64,000 nucleotides of DNA, from NCBI GenBank assembly GCA_029881495.1, contig JAOUMJ010000004.1, positions 28,476 through 92,475 of the forward strand. Direction: 5' to 3'. The position numbers were made by a program, and so were the translations under genes. This DNA is from Nitrospinota bacterium. GTDB lineage: Bacteria > Nitrospinota_A > UBA7883 > JACRGQ01. The notes beneath the pieces are model-generated. The model saw only the letters and a program-made list of their open reading frames with translations. It searched no databases and was not told the origin of the DNA. Shown here one piece after another: positions 3,481 to 44,700 of this stretch. The first letter of the stretch is position 1. Each line of letters opens with the position of its first letter.

Positions 3481-4344
3481 CTAAAAATTGTATTTGACCA
3501 GCGTGATGAATTTGCTGTCGAGCATTTTCACGTCCGGCGAGGGCGGAAGATTTGAGTAATCGGCGATTACCTTGAATTCAAGCGCGAGATTGTTCGTCAA
3601 ACTGTTTTCGACGCTCCCTTCATAGTAGATGTAGTAGTCCTTGTCGCTCTTTGATGAAACCTTAAGTACCAGCTTCTCCTTGAATTTTATGCTGTCGTTG
3701 AATTTGTGCCGAAAACGCCATTCGGCGTAGTTTACGAAATGCTCCTCTTTCATGTTGCCATCCTTATCGGGTCGGATGAAGGAATCCTTGTTGTAAAGGA
3801 CGTAAACGCTTCCGGTAAGGTAGGTTTTTTCAGTTTTAATAAAATAGTATCCGCAACCAGGACCGGTTGAGAGCCTGTTGTCGTATCCCTTGAAAGGATT
3901 TTTATAGTAGTTTACGTTCCAGAATGGAAAGAGCCTGTCGAACCTCATCTCCCCCCTCAGGTCGAGTTCGTTTTCATCGTTGCTCTTTATTCCCTTTGAT
4001 TCGCTGTACGCCGATTTGCCGTCGAGAAAAAAACGGTATGTCTTCCGCTCCAGTGACAGGTCGAAGTTCAGCGACATATCGGCGGTATCGGTGTTTCCTC
4101 CGGTCCGGTGGTAGCCGAGTGAGATCGATCCTTCATCCTTCGGCACGAATGCAAGGCGACCTATCGAGGCAGAGATAGGCACAACCGTTATCTCCTGTTC
4201 GCCGAGGCCAGGATTTTCATCTCCATAAAGCGGTCTTGCCGGTACGGTCGCTTCTTCAGGCTTGGGCGGGTCGGCATACGCCTGCCCCGTGAAGAGAAGC
4301 AACGCTCCAAGGATCGCAAACGCTCTGTATCTTTTCGCTCTCAT
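3481..4344 (-). CDS. DUF481-like outer membrane beta-barrel protein with signal peptide
   Basis: Signal peptide (AFAILGALLLFTGQAYA), alternating amphipathic strands, C-terminal aromatic residue (ends ...VKYNF). Confidence 0.55.
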   Translation of the reverse strand: MRAKRYRAFAILGALLLFTGQAYADPPKPEEATVPARPLYGDENPGLGEQEITVVPISASIGRLAFVPKDEGSISLGYHRTGGNTDTADMSLNFDLSLERKTYRFFLDGKSAYSESKGIKSNDENELDLRGEMRFDRLFPFWNVNYYKNPFKGYDNRLSTGPGCGYYFIKTEKTYLTGSVYVLYNKDSFIRPDKDGNMKEEHFVNYAEWRFRHKFNDSIKFKEKLVLKVSSKSDKDYYIYYEGSVENSLTNNLALEFKVIADYSNLPPSPDVKMLDSKFITLVKYNF

Positions 4345-4485
4345 AGAATGGAAATTCTACAATTTTTCAGCCACGGGGGGAACCTCCAGGCACCGGATGG
4401 CAAGATAATCTTGCTCCTCCATACGGTCGGGATTATGTAATAATATGAATGAAGATGTTAATCGGTATCAGTAGGGGATTTTGAA

Positions 4486-6069
4486 ATGTCTTTGCCTTTG
4501 AATTTTGGTATTCCGTATCACACGCTCGTAACCGCCGTAATCATCGCCTTGTCCACGGCTCTTCTGGCGGTACTGTATCAGAAGTTCTTCAGGAAAAAGG
4601 GGATAAACGATTATCCCGACAACTGGCATATGCCGCACCGGCAGAACCTTCATTTCACCGGCAGGGAAGAGCAGATATTGGCTCTCCATGCCTTGCTCCA
4701 CGCTTCCGTTAAGGTCGTGATCATCGGGATGAAGTCCGAGCATGTTTCGGGGGGTATAGGCAAGAGCGAGCTCGCCATTGAGTTCGCATACAGGTGCCGT
4801 GACGAGTATTCCCTGATATGGTGGATTGACGCCGAAACGATATTCTCCATCGAAACCGCTTACATGATGATTGCCAGGAATCTTGGCATCCTGAAAAAGA
4901 ACGAGAGAGATCAAAACAGCATCTCCGCCGCCGTGAAGGATTGGCTCTCCATGAACGGAGAATGGCTCCTTGTTTTCGACAACATGATGAATGAAGAGGA
5001 CCTGCTCCCGTACATCCCCTCGGAAGTGAAGGGGAGGATACTTGTCACCACCCCAAAAAGCGACTGGAAAGAGAGCGTTGCCGCAAGGTTTTCTCTCGAC
5101 GTCTTTACCCCGAAAGAGGCCGTGGATTTTCTTCTGGAAAGGGAAGGGAACACATCGGAGGCGAGAGAGGCGGAAGAGCTATCAAAGGAGACCGGTTTTC
5201 TCCCGCTCGCGCTGGAGCAGGCTTGCGCGCATATTAAATATGAAAAGATATCCATCGCCCAATATCTGGATTCGTTCAGGACAAGAAGGGTCGAGATATT
5301 AATGTCCGGCAGTCCGGCTTCGCCAAATGGTGTGGTCGAGACGGCGTGCGACCTCTCTTTTTCCAAATTGCATGAGGAGGCGAAACAGCTTCTGTTCCTC
5401 TGCGCGTTCCTCCACCCGGAGGATATCCAGTTTGAAATGATAAAGGACGGCGCGGAACATCTCCCTGAACCGCTGAGGTCGGCGGCATACGACATACTGA
5501 GGCTTAGGACCGCCGCCGCAAGCCTCACCTCATACTCCCTCCTGTATTATGAGGAAAACATGATCATCATTCATCGTCTCATGCAGAAAGTGATACGGAA
5601 TCGGATGGACGCGGAAACGAGGAAAATATTCGCGGGGGCCGCGGTGGCGATAGTCGACAAAGCTTTCACCTACGGAGAATACAAGCAGGAAACATGGGAG
5701 CATTCCGACCGCCTTATCGCTCAGGCGTTAACGGCAACGAGCCACGCGGTAGAGGAGGAGGAGGCGCTTGGAACGGCGATAGACCTGATAAATAACACCG
5801 GTCTTTATTTCCAGCAGACGTCGAGATGCCCTGCCGCAAGAGAGCGTCTTGAACTTGGGCTTGCGCTCTCCGGAAAAGTTTACGGCCCCGATAATGCCGA
5901 TGTCGCGGTAATGCACGACAACCTCGCCGAAGTTCTGATGAAACTCCGCGATTTCGAGAACGCGAAAAAACATTTTCAGCGCGCTCTGGAGATAGGTATC
6001 AAGGTTTACGGAGAGGATCACCCCACCACGAACCTCTACCGTGAGAACGTGGAATCGCTCACAAGCTGA
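4486..6069 (+). CDS. membrane-anchored NB-ARC/STAND NTPase with C-terminal TPR repeats
   Basis: N-terminal TM helix; P-loop GGIGKS; Walker B LLVFDN; ILVTT motif; GFLPLAL (GLPLAL-type) motif; C-terminal TPR-like repeats (NLAEVLMKLRDFENAKKHFQRALEI). Confidence 0.7.
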   Translation: MSLPLNFGIPYHTLVTAVIIALSTALLAVLYQKFFRKKGINDYPDNWHMPHRQNLHFTGREEQILALHALLHASVKVVIIGMKSEHVSGGIGKSELAIEFAYRCRDEYSLIWWIDAETIFSIETAYMMIARNLGILKKNERDQNSISAAVKDWLSMNGEWLLVFDNMMNEEDLLPYIPSEVKGRILVTTPKSDWKESVAARFSLDVFTPKEAVDFLLEREGNTSEAREAEELSKETGFLPLALEQACAHIKYEKISIAQYLDSFRTRRVEILMSGSPASPNGVVETACDLSFSKLHEEAKQLLFLCAFLHPEDIQFEMIKDGAEHLPEPLRSAAYDILRLRTAAASLTSYSLLYYEENMIIIHRLMQKVIRNRMDAETRKIFAGAAVAIVDKAFTYGEYKQETWEHSDRLIAQALTATSHAVEEEEALGTAIDLINNTGLYFQQTSRCPAARERLELGLALSGKVYGPDNADVAVMHDNLAEVLMKLRDFENAKKHFQRALEIGIKVYGEDHPTTNLYRENVESLTS

Positions 6070-6245
6070 CCTCTTCCTCGCACCGCCGAAAAGAGATTGC
6101 CGCACTCTGTCCGCAATGACTGTTTAATGAACCACCCCTTGTCCTTCGTCAAGCCGGAGAAACAGCTGATAAAAGTCCGCGTTAACGGAAAAAATGGAAG
6201 AACGGATTCGATTCTGAAATAAGGAAAAACCTGTACAATAGGCGG

Positions 6246-6701
6246 ATGATAAAGACTATCGCCAGCAACAAAAAGGCGTTTCACGACTACACGATCCTTG
6301 AAAAGATCGAAGCTGGGCTTGTACTTGTGGGAACCGAGGTGAAATCACTGCGCGCTGGGAACGTGCGTCTCAGCGAGGCGTACGCCTGGCCGGTAAACGG
6401 CGAGCTTTACATACAGAACATGTTCATCGGCGAATACAAGCAGGGGAACATACACAACCACGAGCCGACGCGCGACAGGAAGCTGCTACTCAAGAAAAAG
6501 GAACTTGAAAAACTCATCGCGAAGACACAGGAAAAGGGATTGAACATCGTCCCGTTAAGGATATATTTCAAGGATGCTCTCGTGAAGCTGGAGCTTGGGC
6601 TTGGCAAAGGTAAAAAACTATACGATAAGCGCGAGACCCTCAAGAAAAAGGTGATGGATCGCGAGGCGCAGAGGAGTCTCGCCGACAGGAACAAGGGGTA
6701 G
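6246..6701 (+). CDS. smpB: SsrA-binding protein SmpB
   Basis: 151 aa; N-terminal NKKAFHDYTILEKIEAGLVLVGTEVKSLR signature of SmpB. Confidence 0.9.
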   Translation: MIKTIASNKKAFHDYTILEKIEAGLVLVGTEVKSLRAGNVRLSEAYAWPVNGELYIQNMFIGEYKQGNIHNHEPTRDRKLLLKKKELEKLIAKTQEKGLNIVPLRIYFKDALVKLELGLGKGKKLYDKRETLKKKVMDREAQRSLADRNKG

Positions 6702-6772: not shown

Positions 6773-7579
6773 TTGAGCGCACTGCATTTCGAATCTGCCG
6801 GTTTCGGCGAACCGATAATTTTCATCCACGGCTGGGGTGTGAGTTCGGCGGTTTGGAAAGAGGAGGCCGACTACTTCTCGAAGAGGTTCCGCGCAGTGAC
6901 GGTAGATCTACCGGGACACGGAAAGTCGGCGCCGGTCGACGTAGAGCTGACCATTAAGCTCTGCGCGGAGCTGTTAAAGGAGCTAATGAAAAACGAGGGG
7001 CTGGAAGGCGCGCACCTTGTCGGGTGGTCGCTTGGCGCGGAGGTTGCCGCGCGTACGGCGATGATCTCCGGAGGCAGATTGGTCCGCTCACTCGTATCGG
7101 TCGGAGGAACGCCGTGCTATGTCGCTCCGACGCAGAAGGACGAGTGGGGTATGCCTGAGGGGAAAGCAAAATATTTCCAGCGACAGCTTGAGCGCGATTT
7201 CTCGGTGAGCCTTTCGATGTTCATACACACATTCTTTGAGGCGGAGAAGGATATTTCAGCCGAGCGGGCGGCGTTCATCAAATCGGTTTTTTTCGGCGAA
7301 GATTTTCCGCCGGACCAAAGGTCTGCCATTGACCTCTTAAAAAGTCTCTATGACGAGGATCTGCGCGGGGAATTGAAGGCCTCTCCTCTCACATTGCCTC
7401 TCTTGGTATGCCATGGCGACCGTGATATGATTGTCCCGATTGGAGCGGCCGAACAATGGAGCGCTCTCCTTTCGCAGGTGAAGATCGTGAAATTTGAAAA
7501 TTGCGGGCACGCCCCGTTCCTTACAAACAGCGAGCTATTTCGGGAAACCGTTGAAAATTTCATAACGGCATTAGGATGA
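6773..7579 (+). CDS. bioH: alpha/beta hydrolase, probable pimeloyl-ACP methyl ester esterase
   Basis: IIFIHGWG and GWSLGA (GxSxG nucleophile elbow) motifs; sits directly upstream of bioC and bioD/bioA. TTG start; stop overlaps bioC ATG. Confidence 0.6.
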   Translation: MSALHFESAGFGEPIIFIHGWGVSSAVWKEEADYFSKRFRAVTVDLPGHGKSAPVDVELTIKLCAELLKELMKNEGLEGAHLVGWSLGAEVAARTAMISGGRLVRSLVSVGGTPCYVAPTQKDEWGMPEGKAKYFQRQLERDFSVSLSMFIHTFFEAEKDISAERAAFIKSVFFGEDFPPDQRSAIDLLKSLYDEDLRGELKASPLTLPLLVCHGDRDMIVPIGAAEQWSALLSQVKIVKFENCGHAPFLTNSELFRETVENFITALG

Positions 7580-8352
7580 CCAATACCGACAAGATAAAAC
7601 GGGCCTTCGGGAGGAGCGCCGGAAGCTACGAAAGATTCGGCACCTTGCAGCGCGAGGTATCCGCGCGCCTCGTGCGGGAATTCACTCCGTTTGATGGCTC
7701 CCCGCAACGCGCTCTCGACATCGGATGCGGCACAGGGTTCACTTCGACCGATATGAAGAAGCGTTGGCCCACGGCTGACATTCATCCGCTCGACCTCGCT
7801 TTGCCGATGGCGAAACGTACTCACGCGGCGGGCTTCATAAAAAGTGTCGCCGGCGACGCATCATCCCTCCCTTACGCGGAGGCTCTCTTTGATGTAGCGG
7901 TATCTTCACTCGCACTGCAGTGGGGGAGCGATTATGAAAGAATATTTTCCGAAGTCTCCCGTACGCTGAAGCCGGGGGGACTCTTTTCGTTCAGCGCCCT
8001 TCTCCCCGGAACGCTGAGGGAGCTTCGAGGCGCTTACGATTCGGCTAGCAGGGAGTGCACCGGCAAGGGGGCGAATTTCCCCTCCTTTGCTTCGATAGAG
8101 GAAATGACTGCGCCTCTTGAAACCGGGGGATTCCGCAATTTGTCGATACATGCCGAGAGCGTGGTGAAGAGCTACTCCACAGTTGAAGAGATGATGCGGA
8201 CATTGAAAGGTATAGGAGCTACAAATCCGGCAAGACCGGAAAATCCTCCGAGGCGTGACGTGCTTGCGCGGACCATGGAATTTTATCCCGGGCGCAACGG
8301 CCATGTGGAGGCGACATATGAAATCTCCTACATCTCCTGCGTGAAGGGGTAG
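7576..8352 (+). CDS. bioC: malonyl-ACP O-methyltransferase
   Basis: SAM-binding motif LDIGCGTGF; N-terminal FGRSAGSYERFGTLQREV typical of BioC; biotin gene context. Confidence 0.7.
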   Translation: MTNTDKIKRAFGRSAGSYERFGTLQREVSARLVREFTPFDGSPQRALDIGCGTGFTSTDMKKRWPTADIHPLDLALPMAKRTHAAGFIKSVAGDASSLPYAEALFDVAVSSLALQWGSDYERIFSEVSRTLKPGGLFSFSALLPGTLRELRGAYDSASRECTGKGANFPSFASIEEMTAPLETGGFRNLSIHAESVVKSYSTVEEMMRTLKGIGATNPARPENPPRRDVLARTMEFYPGRNGHVEATYEISYISCVKG

Positions 8353-8356
8353 CGGT

Positions 8357-10480
8357 ATGGATGTAAATGCTCGCGCCGGATATTTCGTCACAGGTACAGG
8401 CACAGGTGTAGGGAAGACCGTCGCGGCGGGAGCCGTCGCGTACCTTTTGAAAAAAGCGGGATACTCAACAGGGGTGATGAAACCTGTACAGACCGGGGCG
8501 AAGAGCGTAAAGGGGAAACTGGTATCGGAGGATTACGAATTTCTCCGCGCGGTAGCCGATACGGACGATCCTTATGAAACGGCCGTTCCGGCAATATTGA
8601 AAACTCCGCTCTCCCCGTATCACGCATCCCTTGCTGAAAGGGAGAAGGTGGATGTGGCCCATCTCGCGATCAGTTTCCAGAAGATGAAAGAGCGGTACGA
8701 GGTCGTAGTGGTCGAAGGGGCGGGGGGGTTGATGGTTCCGCTCACGGAAAATCTTTTCTGGCACCACTTCATCAAGATGATAGACCTTCCGTTGATAGTG
8801 GTGACAGGCGCGGAGCTTGGAATGATCCATCAGACCCTCTCCACGATCCTTTCTGCGGAGATGTATGGGCTGGAGATAGCCGGGATAATGATAATGGAGA
8901 CGAAGAAAAAGAATAATCCCGAGCCGGATATCAAGTGGCTCGAAAAAACTTCCGGCTATCCGGTGCTCGGAGTCCTCCCTCACACCTCTTCGGTTGCGGG
9001 GGCGAAGGTGAAGAAAAAGGCCTTCCACTCGCACGTTGAAAAACATATCAAGGCAAAACCTTTCGTCGATTATATCGAAAGGAAGGGGTGCGAAGCGGAG
9101 TGGAAACGGCTGAACGAAGCGGATCACAAATATGTATGGCACCCCTTTACCCAGATGGCGGATTGGGTGAAGGAGGAGACGCTTGTCATCGAATCTGCGA
9201 GCGGAATGAAGCTGAAGAGTATAACGGGGGAAGAGTATTACGACGGGCATTCCTCTTACTGGGTGAACGTGCATGGGCACGGCAATCCAGAACTTTCAAG
9301 AACGCTTGCCCGTGAAACTGCAAAGCTCGATCACTCCACATTCCTCGGATTGAGCAACAGGCCGGCGATTGATCTTGCTGAAAAGCTTGTGGAGATTACG
9401 CCAAAAGGTTTGAGCAAGGTATTCTTTTCCGATAACGGCTCCACCGCGGTGGAAGTCGGCATGAAGATGGCCGTGCAGTATTTCCGCCAGAGGGAGAAGG
9501 GGAAGAGCCGGAAGAAAAGGAAGTTCATCGCGCTTGGCGAGGCTTATCATGGCGATACGCTCGGCGCGGTTGCCGTAGGTGGAGTTGAGATATACAGAAA
9601 TATCTTCGGCCCGCTCCTTGCCGACGTGGTATTCACACCTTCGCCATACTGCTATCGGTGCCCATTGAAGAAGTTTCCGTCCGACTGTTCTCTTGCGTGC
9701 GCCGCGGAGATGGAGAAGTTGATAGTGGAGAACCACGAAGATATCGCGGCATTTGTTATAGAACCGATAGTCCAAGGGCCGGGGGGGATAATCGTGGCCC
9801 CTTCGGGCTATCTGAAAAGGGTGCGGGAGCTATGCACGAAATACGACATACTTATGCTTGCCGACGAGGTTGCCGTAGGGTTTGGCCGTACTGGAAAGAT
9901 GTTCGCCTGCGAACATGAAGAGGTTGAGCCGGATCTGATGGCGCTCTCAAAAAGCCTCGGTGCGGGACTTGTCCCGATAGCGGCGACGATGGCGACCGAT
10001 GAGATTTACGAAGCTTTTCTCGGGAAGTGGGAGGAGCAGAAGACGTTTTTTCACGGTCACACATTCACCGCCCACCCCCCGGCGTGCGCAGTCGCCCTGC
10101 AATCGCTGAATTTATACAGGAAGCAGGGGATTATCAGGCAGGTCGAGACGAAAAGCCAGGCTCTTGCCGATTCGCTTGTGAGGTTCGAGAACCTCCCGCA
10201 TGTAGGGGATATCCGGCAGAAGGGGATGATAGCCGGGATCGAACTCGTAAAGAACCGTGAAACAAAAGAACGTTTTGAGATAGCGGTTCGTGCGGGTAAC
10301 ATGGTCTCAAAGGAAGCGAGGAGGAACGGGCTGATAGTGCGCCCCCTGGGTGATACTCTGGTGCTCTTTCCGATCCTTTCCGTCAGTGAAGGCGATTTGA
10401 GAAAAATGACGGATATACTTTACAATTCGATCGCGGCTGTTACAGGTTCGTTCGAAAAGAACGAACCGTTTGTGAAATAG
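8357..10480 (+). CDS. bifunctional dethiobiotin synthetase / adenosylmethionine-8-amino-7-oxononanoate aminotransferase (BioD-BioA fusion)
   Basis: N-terminal ~230 aa BioD with P-loop GTGTGVGKT; C-terminal ~460 aa class-III aminotransferase with WHPFTQM, DEVAVGFGRTGKMFA and PLP-lysine region LSKSLGAG in one uninterrupted frame. Confidence 0.85.
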   Translation: MDVNARAGYFVTGTGTGVGKTVAAGAVAYLLKKAGYSTGVMKPVQTGAKSVKGKLVSEDYEFLRAVADTDDPYETAVPAILKTPLSPYHASLAEREKVDVAHLAISFQKMKERYEVVVVEGAGGLMVPLTENLFWHHFIKMIDLPLIVVTGAELGMIHQTLSTILSAEMYGLEIAGIMIMETKKKNNPEPDIKWLEKTSGYPVLGVLPHTSSVAGAKVKKKAFHSHVEKHIKAKPFVDYIERKGCEAEWKRLNEADHKYVWHPFTQMADWVKEETLVIESASGMKLKSITGEEYYDGHSSYWVNVHGHGNPELSRTLARETAKLDHSTFLGLSNRPAIDLAEKLVEITPKGLSKVFFSDNGSTAVEVGMKMAVQYFRQREKGKSRKKRKFIALGEAYHGDTLGAVAVGGVEIYRNIFGPLLADVVFTPSPYCYRCPLKKFPSDCSLACAAEMEKLIVENHEDIAAFVIEPIVQGPGGIIVAPSGYLKRVRELCTKYDILMLADEVAVGFGRTGKMFACEHEEVEPDLMALSKSLGAGLVPIAATMATDEIYEAFLGKWEEQKTFFHGHTFTAHPPACAVALQSLNLYRKQGIIRQVETKSQALADSLVRFENLPHVGDIRQKGMIAGIELVKNRETKERFEIAVRAGNMVSKEARRNGLIVRPLGDTLVLFPILSVSEGDLRKMTDILYNSIAAVTGSFEKNEPFVK

Positions 10481-13090: not shown

Positions 13091-13477
13091 TCAGCTCTTA
13101 ATTACAGCTCCGGCGGTAAATATCCCTACCGGCTTTTCTTCCTTTACGACAATGAGGTGCATAATCTTTTTGTCGGCCATGATCTTTTTCGCTTCAAAGA
13201 TCGATTCGGTATGGTCGATTACTATAGGCTTCTTCGTCATGATCTTCGAAATGGCTGTAGCAGCGAGATCCTTTCCGCTGGCGACACCTCTTCTCACGAT
13301 ATCCTGCTCGGTTACGATTCCGGTGATTTTTCCGGTCTTTCCGATAACAAGGAGAGAGCCTGTATTTTTGCTTTTCATTTTTGCGGCGGACTTTTTTATG
13401 GTTTCAGTTTCCTTTATGGTTACCACGTTTTTATCGGCCATATCACCAACTGCGAGCAGCGTTTTAAATTCCGCCAT
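13091..13477 (-). CDS. CBS domain pair protein
   Basis: 128 aa; two CBS-like repeats (SLLVIGKTGKITGIVTEQDIVRR / HLIVVKEEKPVGIFTAGAVI). Confidence 0.75.
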   Translation of the reverse strand: MAEFKTLLAVGDMADKNVVTIKETETIKKSAAKMKSKNTGSLLVIGKTGKITGIVTEQDIVRRGVASGKDLAATAISKIMTKKPIVIDHTESIFEAKKIMADKKIMHLIVVKEEKPVGIFTAGAVIKS

Positions 13478-13752
13478 TTTGGAACTCCTCCCGGTTTATG
13501 TAAGTTGAATTATGGTAATTTACCCTTGCCTTGAGGAAGTGTCAAATTAATTAAAAAAGTTCATTGAATTGCCATGAGCTATTTAAACATCTGAAAGTGA
13601 AGCGTTTTTGGAGATATCTGGAAATGTGCCTAAGGAAATAATGTTATGTATGATAACAGGTAGAATTGAGTAGCGGCTCTGGTTTGACCAGTGAACAGTA
13701 AACGCTGAATATATTGTTGAATGTTCAGCAACATTTCAGTAATATCCCAAAG

Positions 13753-14361
13753 GTGGAAACCAACGAAGATATCAAGGGTAAAATTCTCGAGGCGGCGATG
13801 GCGAGGTTTATCCATTACGGTTTTCATAAAACTACAATGGCGGAAATTGCCAAGGATTGCGGCATGTCAGCTGCGAACCTCTACCGGTTTTTCCAGAACA
13901 AGGCCGAGATAATCGTCACACTTGCGCTGAATCATTTTGAGGTGACATGGGAGAAGATGGAGGCGATCGTTGGCAACCGTACCCTTGCTTCAGCGGAAAA
14001 ACTTGAAAGCTTCTTTGTTCATCTCTTCAGATGCAACCGCGATCTGTTGCGCGAAAAGCCGAATATTTCAGAGGTGGTCGAGTTCTTCCTTAATGAACGC
14101 CCGGACATCGTAAAGGAGATGGTTTCCCGCGAAATCGTTACGCTGGAAAAAATTCTCGTAGATGGAAATGATTCGGGCGAATTCGCCATTGAGGATACCG
14201 CGGAAACCGCCAGGAATTTCAGGATGGCGTTTACTCCGTTTATCGTCACGCCGTTCCTTCTTCATATTATGGATAACAAGGTCATCGACCATGGCGACCT
14301 GGAAACGAGGCTGAAGAGTCTGCTGAAGCTCCTTTTGAAAGGTATATCCGCGTCGAATTAA
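13753..14361 (+). CDS. TetR/AcrR family transcriptional regulator
   Basis: N-terminal HTH region ILEAAMARFIHYGFHKTTMAEIAKDCGMSAANLYRFFQNK; GTG at 13753 with aaagg RBS; upstream of efflux genes. ORF track start is 13714. Confidence 0.8.
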   Translation: METNEDIKGKILEAAMARFIHYGFHKTTMAEIAKDCGMSAANLYRFFQNKAEIIVTLALNHFEVTWEKMEAIVGNRTLASAEKLESFFVHLFRCNRDLLREKPNISEVVEFFLNERPDIVKEMVSREIVTLEKILVDGNDSGEFAIEDTAETARNFRMAFTPFIVTPFLLHIMDNKVIDHGDLETRLKSLLKLLLKGISASN

Positions 14362-28609: not shown

Positions 28610-28815
28610 AAGGATAACACGCGATTTTCAGAATGTCTTTTTCGCGATGCATTTTAAATATGAGGGAAGGGTCATCCATGTTTTTTCCCGGTTTTTGGAA
28701 CATCGCCTCGCCAATCCCGGGGAGTTACCCAAACCTGCAATATGGTTTAAACTTGTTATACTTGTTTGCAACGGCTTATCCAGCCGGTATGGATCGAAAT
28801 AGGGAGCATTCGATT

Positions 28816-30957
28816 ATGGATGACAGGTTATTACGGAGATTGGCGGGCGTCAGGCCGGCATATATTGTTCTTGTGTCGGTGCTTGCCTCTGTCAGCCTCA
28901 CCCTGGTAATTGTCTCCATATGCAGTCTCTATTTTTACGGTCGCGTTACTTTCGAGTTTATCGCTACCGGGATCATCGCCTCTTTCTTTGTGGCTTTCTT
29001 GGTCGTCATGTTTCTGCAAAAAATTACGAATAGCATTATGGAAGTGAAGCTCCAGTCGGATTCCATGATCCAATCCCTGGAGAAAAATATCTCCAATATC
29101 ATCCAAAAGAGCAATGACGTCTTCTACAGGACCAACCTGAAGGGGGAGATAGTCTGGATATCTCAATCGGTTCAAAAGGTGATGGGATATTCTCCGGAAG
29201 AGTTGATCGGGAAGGATATTTCCAGTTTTTACGTAAATCCGGAAGAGCGATTGAGGCTCCAGGAGTTGCTGAGGGAGAATGGCGGATTCGTAAAGAATTT
29301 TGAGGCAAAACTCCGGAAGAAGGATGGGAGCGAGATATGGCTCTCAACGGACACCGGTTATTATTACGACGAACACGGGAGCATCGCCGGAGTTGAAGGG
29401 GAGACCAAGGATGTAACCGAAAAGAAGGAGATCGAAAACGCCCTGAGGCTCTCCGAGGAAAAGTACAGAACGCTTATCGAAAATATACAGGAGGGGATAT
29501 TCCTCCTTCAGGAAGGGAAGTTCGTCTACGTAAATGACAGGTTTGCCGAAATGACCGGCTACAAGGTAGCCGAGATAATTGGAAAGGAGTTTGCCCCTTT
29601 CGTGGCCCCGGAAGACAGGAACAAGGTTTTCGAGCGGTACAAAAGGAGGTTGCAGGGGGAAGACGTTCCAAAGGAGTACGAGTTCCGGCTCCTGCATAAG
29701 GATGGCAATGCGCGGGTGGTTGTGCATATGCTGGTGAGTCTCACCCAGTATCAGGGAAAACTGGCAACCACCGGTACGATCACCAATGTATCCGAAAAGC
29801 GGAAGATGGAAACTCTCTATCAAAAAGCCCAAAAACTCGAATCTGTGGGATTGCTGGCTGGCGGCATTGCCCATGATTTCAACAACCTCCTCACCTCGAT
29901 ACTGGGCGGTCTCTCACTGCTGAAGCTTACTATCGACAAGAGCGGAGATGACGAGGATTTGCAGATAGTCACGGAATCTATAAACGCCACTAAGCGCGCG
30001 AAAGACCTCGCAAGACAGCTCCTTTCATTTTCGAAGGGGTCGGAGCCTGTAAAGAAGCTGTTAAGCCTCAAAGATCTCCTGATGGACTGCGTGTCGTTTT
30101 CTCTTCGGGGTTCGTTATCGAATTATTCGTTCGATATTGTCGACGACCTCTGGAACGTGGAGGCCGATGAAGGACAGCTTAACCAGGTATTCAATAATTT
30201 GATAATCAACGCGGAACAGTCAATGCCGGACGGCGGCGTGATAGATGTCTGCGCCTACAATATAAACATATCGTCGCACAGCGGGATACCTCTTCCACCA
30301 GGGAAGTATGTTCAGATTACGGTTGAGGATGCCGGCCACGGAATACCGGATGAATATCTCGACAAGATATTCGATCCCTACTTCACCAGTAAACAGAAGG
30401 GGAGCGGGCTCGGCCTTGCGTCAGCATATTCGATAATCAGGAACCACGGCGGATTTATCGATGTTGAATCCGATCTCGGAAAGGGGAGCAGGTTCCATGT
30501 ATTCGTTCCGGCCAGCGATTTGGCGATAAATGAATACGCCTCTTCTCCAGCGCTTGTGAAAGGCCATGGGAGGGTTCTTGTTATGGATGATGAGGATGTC
30601 GTAAGGAATGTTCTCGGCAGGATGTTAAAGAGGCTGGGGTACGAGACGGAGTATGCCGTCGACGGCGAAGAGGCCGTCAGCATTTACAGGCAAAACCTCG
30701 AAAACGGCACCCGGTTTAAGGCGATAATTACCGATCTCACGATACCCGGCGGGATGGGGGGAGAAAAGGTCTTGAAAATCCTCAAGGAGGCCGACCCTGA
30801 GATCAAGGCGATAGCAACAAGCGGCTACGCGCTTGATCCCATAATGTCGGATTATCCCAAATACGGATTTGCCGGAATTCTTCAAAAACCTTTTGAAATG
30901 GAAAACCTAAGCGTGGTACTGGAAAAGGTGACGGCGGAGAACGGCGGGAAATCATAA
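28816..30957 (+). CDS. hybrid sensor histidine kinase (membrane N-terminus, two PAS, HisKA, HATPase_c, receiver)
   Basis: H-box GIAHDFNNLLTSILGG; N/G boxes (NNLIINAEQSM, DAGHGIPDEYLDKIF, GSGLGLASAYS); C-terminal REC (VLVMDDE ... ITDLTIPGGMGG). ATG 28816 chosen by RBS; ORF track start is 28633. Confidence 0.85.
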   Translation: MDDRLLRRLAGVRPAYIVLVSVLASVSLTLVIVSICSLYFYGRVTFEFIATGIIASFFVAFLVVMFLQKITNSIMEVKLQSDSMIQSLEKNISNIIQKSNDVFYRTNLKGEIVWISQSVQKVMGYSPEELIGKDISSFYVNPEERLRLQELLRENGGFVKNFEAKLRKKDGSEIWLSTDTGYYYDEHGSIAGVEGETKDVTEKKEIENALRLSEEKYRTLIENIQEGIFLLQEGKFVYVNDRFAEMTGYKVAEIIGKEFAPFVAPEDRNKVFERYKRRLQGEDVPKEYEFRLLHKDGNARVVVHMLVSLTQYQGKLATTGTITNVSEKRKMETLYQKAQKLESVGLLAGGIAHDFNNLLTSILGGLSLLKLTIDKSGDDEDLQIVTESINATKRAKDLARQLLSFSKGSEPVKKLLSLKDLLMDCVSFSLRGSLSNYSFDIVDDLWNVEADEGQLNQVFNNLIINAEQSMPDGGVIDVCAYNINISSHSGIPLPPGKYVQITVEDAGHGIPDEYLDKIFDPYFTSKQKGSGLGLASAYSIIRNHGGFIDVESDLGKGSRFHVFVPASDLAINEYASSPALVKGHGRVLVMDDEDVVRNVLGRMLKRLGYETEYAVDGEEAVSIYRQNLENGTRFKAIITDLTIPGGMGGEKVLKILKEADPEIKAIATSGYALDPIMSDYPKYGFAGILQKPFEMENLSVVLEKVTAENGGKS

Positions 30958-39025: not shown

Positions 39026-41296
39026 ATGCCGAAAACCAGGGACTTCACGATAAAGCAGAAGCTGGGGCTCATCATCGGGGTGACCACTGTTGTGGCGCTC
39101 CTTCTCGCTTCGGTGTCGTTCATCCTCTACCAGAGATACATGCTAAGGCAGACCATAGTGCAGGATCTCTCTTCGCTAGCGGAGATCACGGGAAACAACA
39201 ACGCCGCTTCACTCGCGTTCATGGACACCGGTTCGGCAAGGGATACGCTCGGTGGCCTGAGCGCCAGGCCGTCTATCGAAGGGGCCGCTATATACTCCGC
39301 TGACGGCGAGCTGTTCGTGAAATATATAAAGATGAACGCGGATTTTGACGTTCCTGAATACCCAGGCGAGGACGGGCAGAGCTTTTCAGGCGGGAGGCTT
39401 ATCCTTGCAAGGGGGATAATATTCGACGGTGAGAGGATAGGTACCTTTTTCCTGGCGGCAAACATGGACGAGCTGAACGCACTGACAATAAAAAGTTCGA
39501 TGACAGTTCTGCTGGTAATGTTTATTTCGTTGATAGCCTCAATGATCGTCTCTTCAAGGCTTCAGGGGCTTATTTCAAATCCGGTAGCGGCCCTTTCAAG
39601 CCTCGCCATATCGGTTTCTGAGAGCAAGGATTATTCCGTCCGCGCAAAAAGCGACAGCCGCGACGAATTCGGCGACCTCATGAACGCGTTTAACGAGATG
39701 CTTGAACAGATCCAGTCAAGGGATCAAAAGCTGAGGGAACATGGCAAAGAACTGGAAAAGGAAGTTGAGGAGCGTACAAGAGAGTTGAACATCGCCAATA
39801 CGAATCTAAACGAAGAACTATTGGACCGCAGAAAGGCGGAACAGGCGCTTGCCCGCACGCTAAGCGAACTGGAAACGATAATGAACGCAAATCCCGACAT
39901 CCTTTACGTCGTAAACATGGAAGGGAAACTGATCAAATGGAACAACGGACTGGCAATGCTCACTGGGCTGGGGCCGGACAAGCTGATGCTACGGCCGATA
40001 ACCGAATTCATTCATGAAGATGACCGGGATATCGTCATGAGGAGGGTAAAGGATGTATTCCAAAATGGGGAGGCAACGGTCGAAGCGAGATTCTTCGACA
40101 GGAACGGCGACCTTTTCCCTTACTACTGCAACGGAATTGTTCTCAGGAACGAAAAGGGGGAAGTGACCGGCTTTACCGGAACGGGGCGCGACATCTCCAT
40201 ACTGAAGGAGACAGAGCTAGAACTGCGAAGGGCAAAGGATAGCGCCGAGGAGGCCACAAGGCTAAAGGACAAGTTCGTATCGCTAGTTTCCCACGACCTC
40301 AAAGGGCCTCTTGGAAGTCTTTTGGGATTTCTGGAGCTTATCAAAAGGGACTCTGCGAATGGCATCTCTGCGGAATCGGGAAAGTACCTAAGCATCGCCC
40401 TAGATTCCGGCGAGAAAATGCTCACATTGATAGATGATCTCCTCAACATCAGCAGGCTCAAGACCGGAAACATCATGCCGCACTACACATTCAACGATCT
40501 TCACATTATCATGTTGAAGATTCTTTCCGGCCTCGCCTATCCCGCGTCCCTGAAGGGTGTGACAATACAGAACGACGTAAGACCCGGCATCCGCGTATAT
40601 GCCGATAAACAGCTTCTGCAGGAGGTTTTGCAAAACCTTATTTCAAATGCGGTGAAGTTCTGCAATCAAGGGGACACTATCAGGATATTCCTTCCGTCAG
40701 GAAACGGGGGGCAAATTTCCGTTGCCGACACCGGGCAGGGGATCGCCCCCGAAAGGATAGGTAAACTCTTTAATTACGAAGAGAAGACCTCCACTATAGG
40801 CACCGCAGGTGAGACCGGAACGGGGCTGGGGCTCCCGCTTTCAATGGACATCATAAAGGCGCACAAGGGGAACATAGCCATAAGTTCCGAAGTTGGCATA
40901 GGGAGCACTTTCACCGTTTCGCTCCCGATAGTGAAGCCTGTCATTCTCCTTGTGGAAGACGACATAAACCTGATGGAACTCGTAAAGTTCATGCTTGAAG
41001 GGCTGGATGTGTTTATTATGGAAGCGAGGGACGGACAGGAAGCACTCGATATTCTCAGCGAGAAAACCCCTCATCTCATTCTCTCCGACATAATGATGCC
41101 GCGAGTGGATGGTATGGAACTGCTCGAAAAGGTGAGAAATACCGAACTCCTTAAAGATATCCCTTTTATAGTAATGACAACTTCCAGGGAGCCTGAAGTA
41201 TCGGAGAGAGCTTTTCAGCTTGGAGCGGACGACTTCCTGGTAAAACCGGTCACGCAAAACGAAATGATCCCGCGTATCAAGAGATTTATTTTATAG
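39026..41296 (+). CDS. hybrid sensor histidine kinase (periplasmic sensor, HAMP, PAS, HisKA, HATPase_c, receiver)
   Basis: Two TM helices flanking a ~130-aa periplasmic domain; H-box SLVSHDLKGPL; G boxes DTGQGIAPE, GTGLGLPLSMDI; REC ILLVEDD ... ILSDIMMPRVDG. Confidence 0.85.
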   Translation: MPKTRDFTIKQKLGLIIGVTTVVALLLASVSFILYQRYMLRQTIVQDLSSLAEITGNNNAASLAFMDTGSARDTLGGLSARPSIEGAAIYSADGELFVKYIKMNADFDVPEYPGEDGQSFSGGRLILARGIIFDGERIGTFFLAANMDELNALTIKSSMTVLLVMFISLIASMIVSSRLQGLISNPVAALSSLAISVSESKDYSVRAKSDSRDEFGDLMNAFNEMLEQIQSRDQKLREHGKELEKEVEERTRELNIANTNLNEELLDRRKAEQALARTLSELETIMNANPDILYVVNMEGKLIKWNNGLAMLTGLGPDKLMLRPITEFIHEDDRDIVMRRVKDVFQNGEATVEARFFDRNGDLFPYYCNGIVLRNEKGEVTGFTGTGRDISILKETELELRRAKDSAEEATRLKDKFVSLVSHDLKGPLGSLLGFLELIKRDSANGISAESGKYLSIALDSGEKMLTLIDDLLNISRLKTGNIMPHYTFNDLHIIMLKILSGLAYPASLKGVTIQNDVRPGIRVYADKQLLQEVLQNLISNAVKFCNQGDTIRIFLPSGNGGQISVADTGQGIAPERIGKLFNYEEKTSTIGTAGETGTGLGLPLSMDIIKAHKGNIAISSEVGIGSTFTVSLPIVKPVILLVEDDINLMELVKFMLEGLDVFIMEARDGQEALDILSEKTPHLILSDIMMPRVDGMELLEKVRNTELLKDIPFIVMTTSREPEVSERAFQLGADDFLVKPVTQNEMIPRIKRFIL

Positions 41297-41714: not shown

Positions 41715-44700
41715 ATGACCTCAAAGCCGCAATCAGGGATAGCAAAGCTGATTTTTTCCCCTTGGGGAGCCGTATTGGTATGGAGTGTCTTTATCGCCAT
41801 CTCCCTTCTGTGGAACATCAGCCACCATAGGAAAGACACCCTGGAAATGGCGGTCAAGGAAGCAACCATCCACTTCAACAAGGATCAGGCTTTCAGGTAC
41901 TGGGTTACTTCGCATGGCGGCGTTTACGTCCCTGTGGATGAAAGAACACCTCCAAATCCTCTTCTTTCGCATGTGCCGGAAAGGGATATCGAAACCAAAT
42001 CGGGAAAAAAACTTACCCTGATGAATCCCGCTTACGCCTTGCGCCAGTTGATGAACGATTACAGCGACAAATACGGGATAAAAGGGCGCATTACGAGTCT
42101 GAAACTCCTTAACCCGGCAAACGCTCCCGACGAGTGGGAAAAGAAAGCGCTAAAGTCCTTCGAGAATGGCGCGGCTGAAGCGGTTGAATTCACCAAGATC
42201 GACGGCGTTCCGTTTCTGAGGTTCATGCGTCCGATGATCACCGAAGAGGGATGTCTTAAATGTCACGCGCATCAAGGGTACAAGGTCGGCGATGTGAGGG
42301 GTGGGGTCGGGGTAATCCTTCCGGTACAGCCGTATATGGAAATAGAGAAAAGCGAAGTTGCATCAATAGCCATCTCGCACAACCTGTTCTGGATAATCGG
42401 GCTTTTTGCCATCGGGTTCGTATCGAGGCTGAATAAAAAGAGGATACAGGAAAAGAGCGAGGCCGAACAGGCAGTTTTCCTTTTCAGGACCCTTCTTGAC
42501 CGCTCCAGCGACGCCATCACCGTTGTTGATCCCGACAACGGAAGGTTCCTCGATTTCAATGAAAAGTTCTGCGCTAATCTCGGTTACGGACGCCATGAGA
42601 TCATGGGGAAGAGCATTATTGATATCGATTCAACCATCAAGGATATCTACGAGTGGAACAAGCGAATTGAAGAGCTGGAGAAACATGAAGAGCTTGTTTT
42701 TGAGAGTGTGCATGTCCGGAAGGATGGCTACAAATTTCCGGTAGAGGTCAGCGTAAAGCTTGTTCGGGAAAAAGGGAAGAGGTTTATCATTGGAGTCACC
42801 AGGGATATTACGGAGAGAAAGCGCGCGGAAGAGGCGCTCTTGCGGAGCGAGGAAAAATACAGGCTGTTGGTGGAGAGCGGTCTCCTGATCGCGTGGGAAG
42901 CGAAGTTCCCTTCGCGGCAGTTCACCTTTGTAAGCTCGCATGCCGGAAAGCTCACAGGCTACAGCGAAAAGGAGTGGTGCAAGCAGGATTTCTGGGTGAA
43001 CCATCTTTATACCGAAGACAGGGAGAAGGCAATAAAACAGAGCGGGGAGCTTGTCAAAAAAGGTGAGGGTCACACACTCGAATATCGGATGATCGCGAAG
43101 GACGGCAAGGTTATCTGGTTCAAGGATATGGTGAGCGTCATAAAGGATTCGGCCTCGGCGCCTGTCGGCCTGCGCGGGTTCCTTACCGATATAACAGAAA
43201 GAAAAAACATGGAAGATCTTGCCAAGAGCAGGGGGGAATCCCTCGCCAGAGCGCAGGAGATAGCGCACATAGGGAGCTGGAGCTGGGATGTTCAAACAGG
43301 CCATCTCTACTGGTCCGACGAAAATTTCAGGCTCTTCGGATTCTCTCCCCAGGAATTCGAGCCTACGTATGAAAAGTTCCTTGAAATTTTACATCCATCC
43401 GATAGAGAGAGCGTGATCCAGGCCGTCAATCTCACGCTGGAGGGGGGCGGGAATTACGATATTGAACATAGGATCGTCCGTCCCGACGGCACGGTAAGGC
43501 TGATACATGGGCAGGGGAGGGTTGAATACGGGAGGGACGGAACGCCTGCAAGGATGTATGGCACGGGACACGATATCACCGATCAGCGGAAATCCGAGGA
43601 GACCATGCGTCTGCAGAGCGAGATGATGGCGAACATGGGGGAGGGGGTTCTGCTGATAAAGGCCGACAACATGAAAATAGTTCACGCGAATTCCAGACTT
43701 GAGAAGATGTTCGGCTATGGTGAGGGGGAGCTTTTGGACAAAGAGGTCGCCATACTTAACGCGCCCACGGAACGCGATCCGAAGGAGACCGCGAGGGGAA
43801 TAGTCACTCTGCTGCAGGAAAAAGGTTTCTGGCAGGGGGAGGTTCACAATATCAAAAAGGACGGTTCCACGTTCTGGTGTTTTGCGTCAATCGCGGGGTT
43901 CGACCACCAGGAGTACGGGAAGGTCTGGATATCGGTGCATGCCGACATAACCGAAAACAAACGCGCAGAGGAAGAAAAACTTCTTTTCAGGAGGCTTGTC
44001 AACAGATCTAACGACATGATCCTTCTGGTCGACCCGGAGAGCGCGCTCATTCTCGATATAAACGACAAGGGGTGCGAGCACCTCGGATATGACCGTGAAG
44101 AGTTGATGAAGATGCGGGTAATAGATTTCGACGCAACCGTAAGTGAAGTTGAAGCGTGGCAGGCACACACTGCGGAGCTGGAAGCTAAGGATTCACTCCT
44201 CTTTGAAAGCGTTCATATAAGAAAAGACGGCGCCCGGATACCGGTAGAGATAAACGTAAAGCTGGTTTCGGAGAGCGGCAGAAGCTTTATAATCGGCGTG
44301 GTTCGGGATATATCCGACAGAAAGCGCGCCGAAGAAGAGCTGAGAAACAGCCAGAAGATACTCGCCCGCGCCCAGAAGATAGCAAATATTGGAAACTGGA
44401 CATGGGATGTGCCGGATCAGAAGTTCAGCTGGTCGGATGAGCTCTATCACATACTCGGTTTAAGCGAGAAGAAGGGGAAGGCGGATTACCTGGCGATACT
44501 GGAGACGACCCACCCGGAGGAGAGGGAAGGATTGAAGCGGGCAATTTTCGATGCGCTCGAAGAGAAAAAGCCATGGAACCTTGATCACAGAATAGTTCTT
44601 GAGGATGGGAATATTCGCGTAGTGCATCACCAGGGGGAGGTCACCTTGAACAGCGATGAGGAGGTCCTCCTCATCGAAGGGACGTTGCAGGATATTACCG

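Follow-up and report, generated by a model that had tools for sequence, protein, structure and literature searches.

Between the gene for a DUF481 protein and smpB, a Nitrospinota bacterium carries a gene for a STAND protein that joins a hydrophobic N terminus to a TPR C terminus, and the locus raises the question of what such a protein does if it has no enzymatic effector domain. An earlier note, made from the letters of the DNA, had proposed a membrane anchor, an NB-ARC-type STAND core and a TPR without an enzymatic effector; this architecture now has support from profile, ortholog and structural comparisons, and both neighbors that it named were recovered as Pfam matches. The features of the locus are given below in coordinates of the window, that is, the whole 64,000-nucleotide stretch of DNA that was analyzed.

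3481 to 4344, minus strand: DUF481 outer-membrane-type protein, divergently transcribed (PF04338 at 1.9e-34).
4345 to 4485, unstranded: divergent intergenic region between DUF481 (minus) and the STAND gene (plus), holding AGGGGA and an A/T-rich -10-like box.
4486 to 6069, plus strand: STAND gene CDS from a program-made ORF list, 527 amino acids, complete, with the stop codon at 6067-6069.
4522 to 4578, plus strand: predicted single transmembrane helix, amino acids 13-31, TLVTAVIIALSTALLAVLY, from hydrophobicity and an AF2 helix, N-out/C-in.
4582 to 4599, plus strand: basic cluster KFFRKK, amino acids 33-38, directly after the helix, from the K/R count and also in ortholog P0002.
4621 to 5685, plus strand: NOD core, amino acids 46-400, comprising the pre-NBD motif P-x-R-x-N-x-x-F-T-G-R, NBD, HD1, winged helix and helical arm.
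4729 to 4767, plus strand: atypical elongated P-loop, amino acids 82-94, MKSEHVSGGIGKS, with V87 for the first Walker A glycine and K93 and S94 kept.
4963 to 4983, plus strand: Walker B, amino acids 160-166, WLLVFDN, the canonical form in the family.
5035 to 5055, plus strand: sensor-1/RNBS-B strand, amino acids 184-190, RILVTTP, with P190 instead of the family arginine.
5194 to 5214, plus strand: GLPL motif, amino acids 237-243, GFLPLAL, conserved.
5356 to 5619, plus strand: winged-helix region, amino acids 291-378, Pfam DUF7779 (PF25000 at 6.4e-12).
5569 to 5586, plus strand: MHD-equivalent motif IHRLMQ, amino acids 362-367, with His363 invariant (110/110 relatives).
5686 to 6066, plus strand: helical arm and minimal TPR sensor, amino acids 401-527, with the family C-terminal capping helix GEDHPTTNLYRENVESLTS.
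6246 to 6701, plus strand: smpB, co-directional and downstream (PF01668 at 8e-57).

The protein is identical to the NCBI entry [quoted passage not shown] Position 4486 is the most upstream start possible for the ORF, and the Shine-Dalgarno-like AGGGGA at 4473-4478 lies 7 nt ahead of the ATG, which argues for the first ATG as the true start. In an alignment with loci L001 and L041, the ATG and its Shine-Dalgarno context were kept in the orthologous locus, as was the A/T-rich -10-like box (TATG..ATAAT, approximately 4432-4443). A promoter-like site was also seen on the minus strand of the intergenic region, at 4461-4432. The alternative start at Met49, which would drop the helix, was rejected; it has no Shine-Dalgarno site, whereas the first ATG does, and the N terminus is conserved and constrained.

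As the earlier note had it, there is one predicted N-terminal membrane helix. Amino acids 13-31 (Kyte-Doolittle 2.29; summed Hessa scale -1.36 kcal/mol) were the sole membrane-competent segment in a hydrophobicity scan of the whole 527-amino acid protein, and in the AF2 model the helix spans amino acids 11-36. There are no K/R residues in amino acids 1-12 versus four in amino acids 32-46, and the same pattern is found in P0002, which also keeps the hydrophobic helix; in comparison with this ortholog, the N terminus is as constrained as the remainder of the protein. By the positive-inside rule, the basic cluster after the helix assigns the remainder of the chain to the cytoplasm. With one hydrophobic segment of approximately 19 or more residues, a positive-inside bias and translation from the annotated start, the protein is a predicted single-pass inner-membrane protein oriented N-out/C-in. 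The helix has 19 residues and an outer stub of 12. A cleavable signal peptide was considered and rejected because a basic n-region is missing, the hydrophobic stretch runs for 19 residues and a basic cluster comes next; in addition, an ATP-dependent fold would be unlikely to function in the periplasm.

In most relatives, the corresponding N-terminal slot holds a TIR domain (as in P0243), and in others a trypsin-like protease (as in P0242) or a transmembrane segment; TM-like N termini were present in 15 of 97 relatives in one set and 18 of 138 in another. The helix therefore occupies the effector slot, and it may perhaps itself be the output element. The statement that the protein has no effector thus stands for nuclease and protease domains and needs qualification for the helix.

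The best NCBIfam match was NF040586 (FxSxx_TPR; E = 9.6e-79, amino acids 52-434 against profile positions 3-391 of 830), with a whole-protein score of 265.8 bits, below the curated cut-off of 300. Pfam NB-ARC (PF00931) gave no match to the query at E ≤ 1; the ortholog P0002, 59% identical, scores above the NB-ARC gathering threshold (27.5 versus 23.5 bits), and canonical relatives pass as well. The AF2 model (pLDDT 92.9, pTM 0.88) leaves nothing of the chain outside the helix, the NOD and the TPR, and its fold contains an NBD-HD1-WHD oligomerization core. On the strength of the NF040586 match, the NB-ARC score of the ortholog and the fold matches, the assignment to STAND is made, so that the NB-ARC-type NTPase of the earlier note is sustained by these lines and not by a PF00931 match of the query. 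No extra domains were found in the protein by Pfam, NCBIfam or PADLOC. The protein is a member of the AP-ATPase/NB-ARC clade and a divergent offshoot of a very large "FxsT-like" TIR/NB-ARC/TPR family, for which no experimental characterization was found in the literature searched.

There were 5,349 representative clusters at E ≤ 1e-30, and identity to all family members but the one ortholog was 30-40%. A scan of GTDB species genomes for orthologs returned relatives of 35% identity or less, mostly Actinomycetes, and a search for related genomes by the DUF481 neighbor recovered only the DUF481 genes of the query and P0002 loci. One further copy, L041, was found in a metagenome scan, and over the aligned intergenic region it does not differ from the P0002 locus; thus, only two independent genomes are known to carry the gene. 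In an NJ tree, the query and ortholog share a long stem (0.149, approximately the 95th percentile) and are joined with other long branches, probably by long-branch attraction, and no sister clade is claimed.

Typical FxsT-like proteins (NF040586; NB-ARC, DUF7779 and TPR_10/TPR_12) share with the query a homologous NOD over amino acids 52-434, the motifs FTGR (pre-NBD), WLLVFDN, GxLPLALEQA and xHRLVQ, the same type of 42-amino acid TPR unit and the C-terminal cap. They differ in length (700-900 amino acids versus 527), in the number of TPR units (approximately 8-10 versus two) and in having a TIR domain where the query has its TM helix; no Fxs partner genes lie near the query. Compact or TM-bearing relatives come closer in layout, with an N-terminal module, NOD, short TPR and cap. 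In P0253, an N-out single-pass helix is followed by a basic cluster, a NOD and three TPR units, and P0175, P0242 and P0243 have two TPR units with, respectively, an unassigned, a trypsin-like and a TIR N terminus. Unlike the query, they retain canonical GxGGxGKT and TSR motifs, are at most 40% identical to it and occupy unrelated contexts; three TM-bearing relatives had heterogeneous gene contexts with no common partner.

Much of the nucleotide site is conserved. The motifs quoted in the earlier note were all located (GGIGKS at amino acids 89-94, LLVFDN at 161-166, ILVTT at 185-189 and GFLPLAL at 237-243), P240 and L243 are invariant across the family, and K93, S94, D165, P240/L243 and H363 fall in family columns that are invariant or nearly so. 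The Walker B, which had been called degenerate, is not; its aspartate is present in 109 of 110 relatives, and the adjacent asparagine is the family norm (105/110 and 237/256). AfsR, with LLDN at this position, hydrolyzes ATP (PMC10936776).

The real deviations lie elsewhere, in V87, a two-residue insertion and P190, and had been missed. Position 87 is valine in the query and glycine in all 110 aligned relatives; pairwise alignment gave unreliable counts at this position because of the adjacent insertion, so pattern-based counts were used instead, which include a few false SGK[ST] matches upstream of the real P-loop. Compared with the same 110 relatives, there is the two-residue insertion by the P-loop, and polar residues are found where beta1 normally runs. 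The loop from beta1 to the helix has 11 residues in the query AF2 model versus 5 in a control model of the canonical relative P0063, so that the P-loop extends approximately 6 residues beyond its normal length, in a part of the query model with a pLDDT of approximately 75. At sensor-1 position 190, arginine is found in 107 of 110 and 221 of 241 relatives, the query has proline and the ortholog histidine; the arginine is absent in approximately 8% of relatives, so its loss is not special by itself. Both the first Walker A glycine and the sensor-1 arginine are deviant only in the query and its ortholog among 256 relatives.

A canonical catalytic site, with an [AG]xxxxGK[ST] P-loop right after beta1 and the sensor-1 arginine of TTR/TSR, is thus absent from the protein. 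Judged from alignment and model, the nucleotide site is remodeled, with the first Walker A glycine and the sensor-1 arginine lost and the P-loop lengthened, and from these motifs and one model we infer a loss of ATPase activity. K191, one residue past the lost arginine and conserved in the ortholog, might compensate for it. Homology is set by profile, ortholog and fold; therefore, the noncanonical P-loop and sensor-1 bear on activity and not on descent. The NB-ARC proteins Apaf-1, CED-4 and plant NRC are only 12-16% identical to the query in sequence and differ in having WD40 or LRR in place of a TPR sensor, in Walker B (D-D/E versus D-N) and in the sensor-1 arginine, which the query lacks along with any CARD/CC. 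The Foldseek matches to the query model included 3shf, the R265S mutant of Apaf-1; R265 is the sensor-1 residue of that protein. Sensor-1 arginine substitutions in NLRP3 reduce ATPase activity 2.5- to 10-fold and impair signaling (PMC9633759), and KpAvs8 is a functional Avs despite degenerate Walker motifs (PMC13581612).

The C terminus is a TPR, as had been proposed, and passed Pfam gathering with 43.4 bits for TPR_12 and 41.2 bits for TPR_10; the helix-turn-helix repeat fold agrees with these scores. There are two units of 42 amino acids each (431-472 and 473-514), of the kinesin-light-chain type, which have diverged from one another (8/42 identical). Superposition of the last 100 residues on KLC2 gave 1.1 Å and 28% identity, and KLC1 was matched by sequence with an E-value of 1.7e-7. 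A likeness to the peptide-binding TPRs of KLC2 and LGN was also seen in the fold search. TPRs of this type (KLC1/2, LGN and bacterial BtubC) bind short linear peptide motifs; unlike them, the query has just two units and a cap, fused to a NOD. No part of the protein is better conserved than the TPR, which is 71% identical in the ortholog versus 52-59% elsewhere. From its sequence, the short array is an internal contraction to two units with the cap kept. Premature truncation of the TPR was rejected, given that the family C-terminal cap is retained and the distance from stop to smpB is only 176 nt.

Within ±10 kb, the neighbors are aroK, aroC, maf, coaE, DUF481, smpB, bio genes, purF and pdxJ. 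Defense genes were found neither in this interval nor in any large ORF of the 64-kb window, PADLOC returned 0 families at E ≤ 1 for the STAND protein, and Rfam returned nothing across the whole window, which leaves the gene without a tmRNA or riboswitch context. The gene had been placed outside any obvious operon, which is now uncertain; no plus-strand terminator-like site was found in the 176-nt spacer before smpB, the spacer is unstructured (z = +1.68), and seven genes run co-directionally from the STAND gene through pdxJ. The pairing of DUF481 and STAND genes is kept in the second genome (L001, L041), and the synteny of the housekeeping block is the same in both genomes, although both contigs with the gene come from the same ENA sample, which makes conserved synteny weak evidence.

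Against the ortholog, the reading frame is full length with a single one-residue indel, and pN was 0.25 versus a saturated pS of 0.77. At 0.31 versus 0.14-0.17 in neighboring genes, dN indicates evolution approximately 1.8 times faster at non-synonymous sites. Codon usage was neighbor-like (cosine 0.953, GC3 0.653). Recent horizontal acquisition was rejected for lack of a compositional signal. The STAND gene is real, conserved and under purifying selection, and its product is a small relation of the NLR/Apaf-1 switch proteins.

The reading we favor, and would trust about halfway, is that of a functional STAND protein, anchored in the inner membrane by a single pass, with a domesticated, lineage-specific cellular role that is probably envelope associated, and not a mobile antiphage module. 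The housekeeping block, the native codon usage and the greatest conservation being in the sensor argue for domestication over a mobile module. Its most likely form is a membrane-tethered, hydrolysis-poor oligomerization switch or scaffold. At rest, the cytoplasmic NOD would be in a closed nucleotide-bound state, which the AF2 model resembles; the small, well-conserved TPR would bind a short peptide or protein motif and release autoinhibition, the NOD would then oligomerize at the inner membrane face, and the output would be non-enzymatic, either by clustering of the N-terminal helices or by recruitment of partners to the membrane. Turnover of ATP would be slow or absent, making the protein a binding-driven switch or scaffold and not a cycling ATPase.

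The best mechanistic template for release of autoinhibition comes from STAND proteins that carry a TPR sensor, in which the ADP-bound form is closed, arm and sensor impose autoinhibition and an inducer drives multimerization (PMC6468293, PMC10936776). AfsR and MalT/PH0952 have the same layout of NOD, arm and TPR sensor, and the AfsR Walker B is likewise of the D-N form; unlike the query with its membrane helix, they are soluble, with canonical P-loops and sensor-1, and AfsR/SARP and MalT/PH0952 carry DNA-binding effector domains (OmpR/BTA or LuxR HTH) that the query lacks. Against the favored reading, no partner gene links the protein to any process, death-type effectors (TIR, protease) dominate the parent family and so favor a role in conflict, and the gene is known from two independent genomes only, from the same ENA sample, in which it evolves faster at non-synonymous sites than its neighbors.

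The main rival is a sensor for abortive infection or conflict, in which a motif of a phage or other foreign protein would bind the TPR, the NOD would oligomerize and the bundled N-terminal helices would perturb or perforate the inner membrane, a logic resembling that of CC-NLR resistosomes and the TM effectors of CBASS and Thoeris. We regard it as possible but doubtful. The placement of the helix in the effector slot, which TIR, protease or TM modules fill in relatives, favors this rival, as does the faster evolution of the gene relative to its housekeeping neighbors. Avs and bNACHT proteins share the tripartite layout of N-terminal output, STAND core and C-terminal repeat sensor; TM N termini are documented among Avs7/Dsr1 module types, degenerate Walker motifs occur in Avs families and leave KpAvs8 able to work (PMC13581612), and oligomerizing TM effectors breach membranes in Thoeris and CBASS (bioRxiv 2025.12.03.692087). 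However, Avs and bNACHT belong to a different STAND clade, and the query matched no PADLOC-DB v2 model (Avs1-5, bNACHT, TIR-NLR) and has no immune effector domain by Pfam. Its context is housekeeping and not a defense island, defense and mobile genes are absent nearby, codon usage is native, and synteny is stable over saturating divergence. The defense-associated sensors clustered in PMC13581612, which envelop whole phage proteins, have at least 400 amino acids, whereas that of the query has approximately 125. Its TPR is the most conserved part, with diverged units, unlike the fast-diversifying repeats of NLRs (Dyrka et al. preprint), and a single 19-residue helix with its short outer stub would be a minimal pore former. 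The hint of an antiphage sensor in the earlier note finds no support in the context, given the blank PADLOC search, the surroundings, the synteny and the sensor size.

It is unlikely, in our judgment, that the protein is a sensor or decoy STAND whose signal passes to a distinct helper STAND or effector elsewhere in the genome, as in paired plant NLRs. In such pairs, the sensor member can dispense with P-loop function, and the query, uniquely with its ortholog among the 256 relatives, has an ATP site that is off at both Walker A and sensor-1, and has no effector domain of its own. STAND-rich loci near some relatives, such as the DUF4062-NB-ARC gene beside P0009, are also consistent with a partner. 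Paired NLR genes are mostly adjacent, however, and neither the 64-kb window nor the ±10-kb flanks contained another STAND gene, a TIR gene or an effector gene.

No better placed is the idea of a minimal bacterial "resistosome," a long shot in which ligand-triggered oligomerization of the NOD would bundle the helices into a membrane-perturbing assembly without ATP hydrolysis, since Walker A and sensor-1 are remodeled. If true, it would be a much reduced prokaryotic equivalent of pore formation by plant CC-NLRs, chromosomally fixed in a Nitrospinota lineage.

Two further readings are very improbable. Although NF040586 is the best NCBIfam match and some relatives are named accordingly in NCBI, a role as FxsT in an FxSxx-COOH system for peptide maturation or conflict is in effect refuted by a score under the cut-off and by missing partners; the query has 527 amino acids against an 830-position profile, the genes called within ±10 kb include no radical-SAM, peptidase/zincin or small FxSxx precursor gene, and FxSxx-COOH systems have been described as ternary and actinobacterial (PMC7159879). 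The long branch, the loss of conserved catalytic residues and a length shorter than nearly all relatives might suggest a decaying TIR-NB-ARC-TPR gene that no longer has its effector, its catalytic residues or most of its TPR array and serves no function. This reading is hard to credit given an intact frame of the same length in two genomes at saturated synonymous divergence and low pN, a cap whose retention points to internal contraction and not truncation, a high-confidence AF2 model throughout and the conserved start codon, Shine-Dalgarno site and TM helix. Least probable of all, an AfsR/MalT-type transcriptional regulator was rejected, as no DNA-binding domain was found by Pfam, NCBIfam or in the AF2 model and the N terminus is a membrane helix.

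The finding defines no new category of system and resolves no open question alone. The protein is a well-defined example of two themes that are known but little studied, i.e., the replacement of enzymatic effectors by membrane helices and the drift of a nucleotide site off the catalytic consensus while the protein is under selection. Small, with a high-confidence model and a stable housekeeping context, it is a convenient minimal model for studying the domestication of defense-type STANDs and for asking whether STAND signaling at the membrane can proceed by binding-driven oligomerization without ATP turnover.

The STAND gene is an uninterrupted ORF in the ORF list, and its start at 4486 is the earliest start codon available downstream of the preceding in-frame stop. 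The gene and the segments of its product are as follows.

4486–6069, + strand: STAND gene, 527 aa
4473–4478, + strand: Shine-Dalgarno-like AGGGGA, 7 nt before the start
aa 13–31: predicted transmembrane (TM) helix, TLVTAVIIALSTALLAVLY, the sole segment with membrane-insertion character
aa 431–514: two 42-aa kinesin-light-chain-type TPR units

The product is identical to a deposited entry, [quoted passage not shown] (130.5-kb contig). The four NTPase motifs described in the earlier note were all found, at aa 89–94, 161–166, 185–189 and 237–243, as were the flanking genes it named, for a DUF481 protein (3481–4344, − strand) and smpB (6246–6701). The HMM check it had proposed gave a divided result: the Pfam NB-ARC model did not match the query even at E ≤ 1, and Pfam matches were limited to DUF7779, which is the winged-helix region in this STAND family, and TPR_10/TPR_12. 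The NB-ARC/STAND assignment was upheld by other evidence. NCBIfam NF040586 (FxSxx_TPR) covers aa 52–434 (E = 9.6e-79), AfsR is the nearest solved nucleotide-binding oligomerisation core (NOD) by sequence, and the orthologue P0002 (527 aa, 59% identical) and canonical relatives clear the NB-ARC gathering score. An AlphaFold2 model built with 112 homologues as input (pLDDT 92.9, pTM 0.88) adopted a closed, resting-type conformation, and Foldseek matched it to the archaeal STAND-TPR protein PH0952 (6mfv), Apaf-1, CED-4, plant NRC NB-ARC modules and MalT. The query is therefore an AP-ATPase/NB-ARC-type STAND protein. A PADLOC search of the query returned zero matches.

Searched exhaustively with HMMER, a set of 1.84 billion cluster representatives yielded 47,763 relatives at E ≤ 1e-3, of which 5,349 reached E ≤ 1e-30. 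Scores fall from 670 bits for the orthologue to 442 bits for the next hit, at 36–40% identity. The usual relative has 700–900 aa and long arrays of 42-aa TPR_10/12 repeats, and most carry an N-terminal TIR domain. Mean NOD identity is 35% between the query and its relatives versus 44% among the relatives, and the query and P0002 form a pair on a long stem branch of the family tree. No orthologue was found among GTDB species representatives. The aligned intergenic region of one further metagenomic copy (L041) is identical to that of the P0002 locus, so only two independent genomes are known to carry the gene. The query and P0002 contigs share one metagenome assembly (ENA sample ERZ27296367); therefore, two related, deeply diverged Nitrospinota populations with the same locus co-occur in that sample. 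No experimentally characterised members of this STAND branch were found in the literature.

The Walker B motif had been described as degenerate, which is wrong: the consensus in this family is Asp-Asn (105 of 110 relatives when aligned, 237 of 256 when counted by pattern), and it is also present in AfsR (LLDN), which hydrolyses ATP with a kcat of 0.05–0.15 per s (PMC10936776). The site is remodelled elsewhere. The query has Val87, and P0002 Ala, in place of the first Walker A glycine of 110/110 relatives; the normal beta1 residues before Walker A (A, I/L/V) are replaced by Ser-Glu, and two residues are inserted before Walker A relative to aligned relatives. In the model, beta1 has moved to residues 76–81, and the loop before the Lys93 helix has 11 residues versus 5 in a control model of P0063, a relative with canonical motifs; this loop is the lowest-confidence part of the NOD (pLDDT ~75). 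Where 107/110 relatives have the sensor-1 arginine (T-S/T-R motif), the query has Pro190 and P0002 has His. Lys93, Ser94, Asp165, the GLPL motif and the MHD-type His363 are retained. Replacement of the sensor-1 Arg in NLRP3 lowers ATP hydrolysis 2.5–10-fold and impairs signalling (PMC9633759); conversely, KpAvs8 has been reported as a functional Avs with degenerate Walker motifs (PMC13581612). Judged from sequence and model, the query probably still binds nucleotide phosphate, with poor or no ATP hydrolysis. Among relatives, the sensor-1 arginine is absent in ~8% of 241 and the first glycine in very few of 256; only the query and P0002, among 256, deviate at both positions. Relatives without the arginine carry Q, L, P, H, V, S or K there together with a canonical P-loop, which suggests that hydrolysis-impaired members arose repeatedly in this family.

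The helix at aa 13–31 has a Kyte-Doolittle value of 2.29 and a summed Hessa score of −1.36 kcal/mol (second-best segment, +3.7), and spans residues 11–36 in the AlphaFold model. There is no Lys/Arg in the 12 residues before it and four in the 15 after it (KFFRKK), so the positive-inside rule predicts an N-out/C-in orientation with a cytoplasmic NTPase; P0002 shares the helix and the charge pattern. The excess of synonymous over non-synonymous change in the N-terminal 45 residues equals that of the remaining protein, which argues against a later start codon. What precedes the conserved FTGR motif varies across the family: this module is an effector slot, occupied by a trypsin-like protease in P0242 and by TIR in P0243. 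The slot has predicted TM segments in 15 of 97 relatives, and an independent search gave 18 such cases among 138 representatives; one of them, P0253, combines a single N-out helix and basic cluster with a canonical NOD and three TPR units. TM modules are also listed at the N-terminus of Avs7/Dsr1 families (PMC13581612). The predicted membrane anchor is thus a recurrent variant and no unique invention.

TM-bearing NB-ARC-TPR genes next to TauE were also seen at L060 3138–7303 (P0054) and L061 6001–9950 (P0009), each followed by one or two more ORFs with faint TPR or TPR-S matches. The terminal sequence of P0054 (630 aa) is non-homologous, which suggests that its TPR array was frameshifted or split in its assembly.

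Superposed on KLC2, the C-terminal 100 residues fit at 1.1 Å with 28% identity. KLC-type TPRs bind peptide motifs. After the two units, the helix GEDHPTTNLYRENVESLTS corresponds to the cap at the C-terminus of long relatives; since the cap is retained, the short array is an internal contraction, and truncation is ruled out. P0175, P0242 and P0243 also have two TPR units, with canonical ATPase motifs. The query sensor comprises ~125 aa, whereas the clustered sensors of defence-associated STANDs are far larger, at 400 aa or more, and envelop whole phage proteins (PMC13581612). The TPR is the most conserved segment relative to P0002 (71% identity; other segments 52–59%), and its two units share only 8 of 42 residues, in direct contrast to the sensor repeats of many NLRs, which are described as nearly identical and fast-diversifying (Dyrka et al. 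preprint).

Between the query and P0002, pS is 0.77 (saturated) and pN 0.25, and the frame is kept at full length with a lone one-residue indel; the gene is therefore no pseudogene or relic. Non-synonymous change is ~1.8 times faster than in neighbouring genes (dN 0.31 versus 0.17 for DUF481 and 0.14 for coaE), and GC3 and codon usage resemble those of the neighbours. The gene (X) sits within a housekeeping run: aroK, aroC, maf, coaE, DUF481, X, smpB, bioH-like, bioC, bioD-bioA fusion, purF, pdxJ. In the second genome, coaE, DUF481 and X are arranged likewise; contexts of relatives with TM N-termini are variable and unrelated. The other large ORFs of the window include no STAND, TIR or defence genes. 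The stop codon is just 176 nt away from smpB, and this spacer (6070–6245) lacks a terminator-like element on the + strand and shows less structure than shuffled controls do (z = +1.68), so transcriptional read-through into smpB is possible. As X through pdxJ are seven co-directional genes with short gaps, X may be the first gene of a long transcription unit.

The biotin genes downstream form a compact cluster, in which BioH-like alpha/beta hydrolase (6773–7579) and BioC-like methyltransferase (7576–8352) genes precede the fusion (8357–10480, + strand; 707 aa), which joins a dethiobiotin-synthetase-like domain (CbiA/AAA_26) to a BioA-like class III aminotransferase. Although smpB is present, no RNA family at all (no tmRNA, tRNA-like element or riboswitch) reached the Rfam gathering threshold anywhere in the 64 kb. 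GC dips to 0.40 (surroundings ~0.52) at about 13250–14000, just upstream of a TetR/outer-membrane factor/AcrB-type efflux cluster. Three large hybrid histidine kinases lie inside 18 kb (28633–30957, 39026–41296 and 41715–46184, + strand); one, of 1,489 aa, has a Tll0287-like N-terminal domain, at least four PAS domains, kinase and receiver, and another has CHASE8, HAMP and PAS domains. The multi-TPR protein encoded at 53724–56225 (− strand; 833 aa), which includes a YfiO/BamD-like segment, has TPRs of a sequence type unrelated to those of the STAND protein.

The gene is thus real and selected, and combines a TM helix, an NB-ARC-type NOD with a remodelled ATP site and a two-unit TPR at a stable housekeeping locus. 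Following the STAND-TPR paradigm (PMC6468293, PMC10936776), the resting closed NOD would be held autoinhibited by the helical arm and TPR until a TPR ligand, probably a short peptide or protein motif, lifts autoinhibition; the NOD would then oligomerise at the cytoplasmic face of the inner membrane, and the sole output left would be N-terminal helix clustering or partner recruitment. We prefer, at roughly even confidence, a domesticated, hydrolysis-poor, membrane-tethered switch or scaffold, given that the sensor is conserved and tiny, the composition native and the synteny fixed, and that the context is not one of defence. The main rival is an abortive-infection sensor with the helix as membrane-perturbing effector; it is favoured by the position of the helix in the effector slot and by the family's bias to TIR/protease, but we consider it rather unlikely. 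That the protein works as a helper-dependent sensor seems less probable still. FxsT membership is contradicted by the NF040586 score (265.8 bits, below the 300-bit cut-off) and a transcription factor by the Pfam matches.

The query adds a divergent new member to a very large, already known branch of the STAND superfamily. Its TM N-terminus, short TPR and missing sensor-1 Arg each recur among relatives; peculiar to the query and P0002 is their combination with a lost Walker A glycine and housekeeping fixation.
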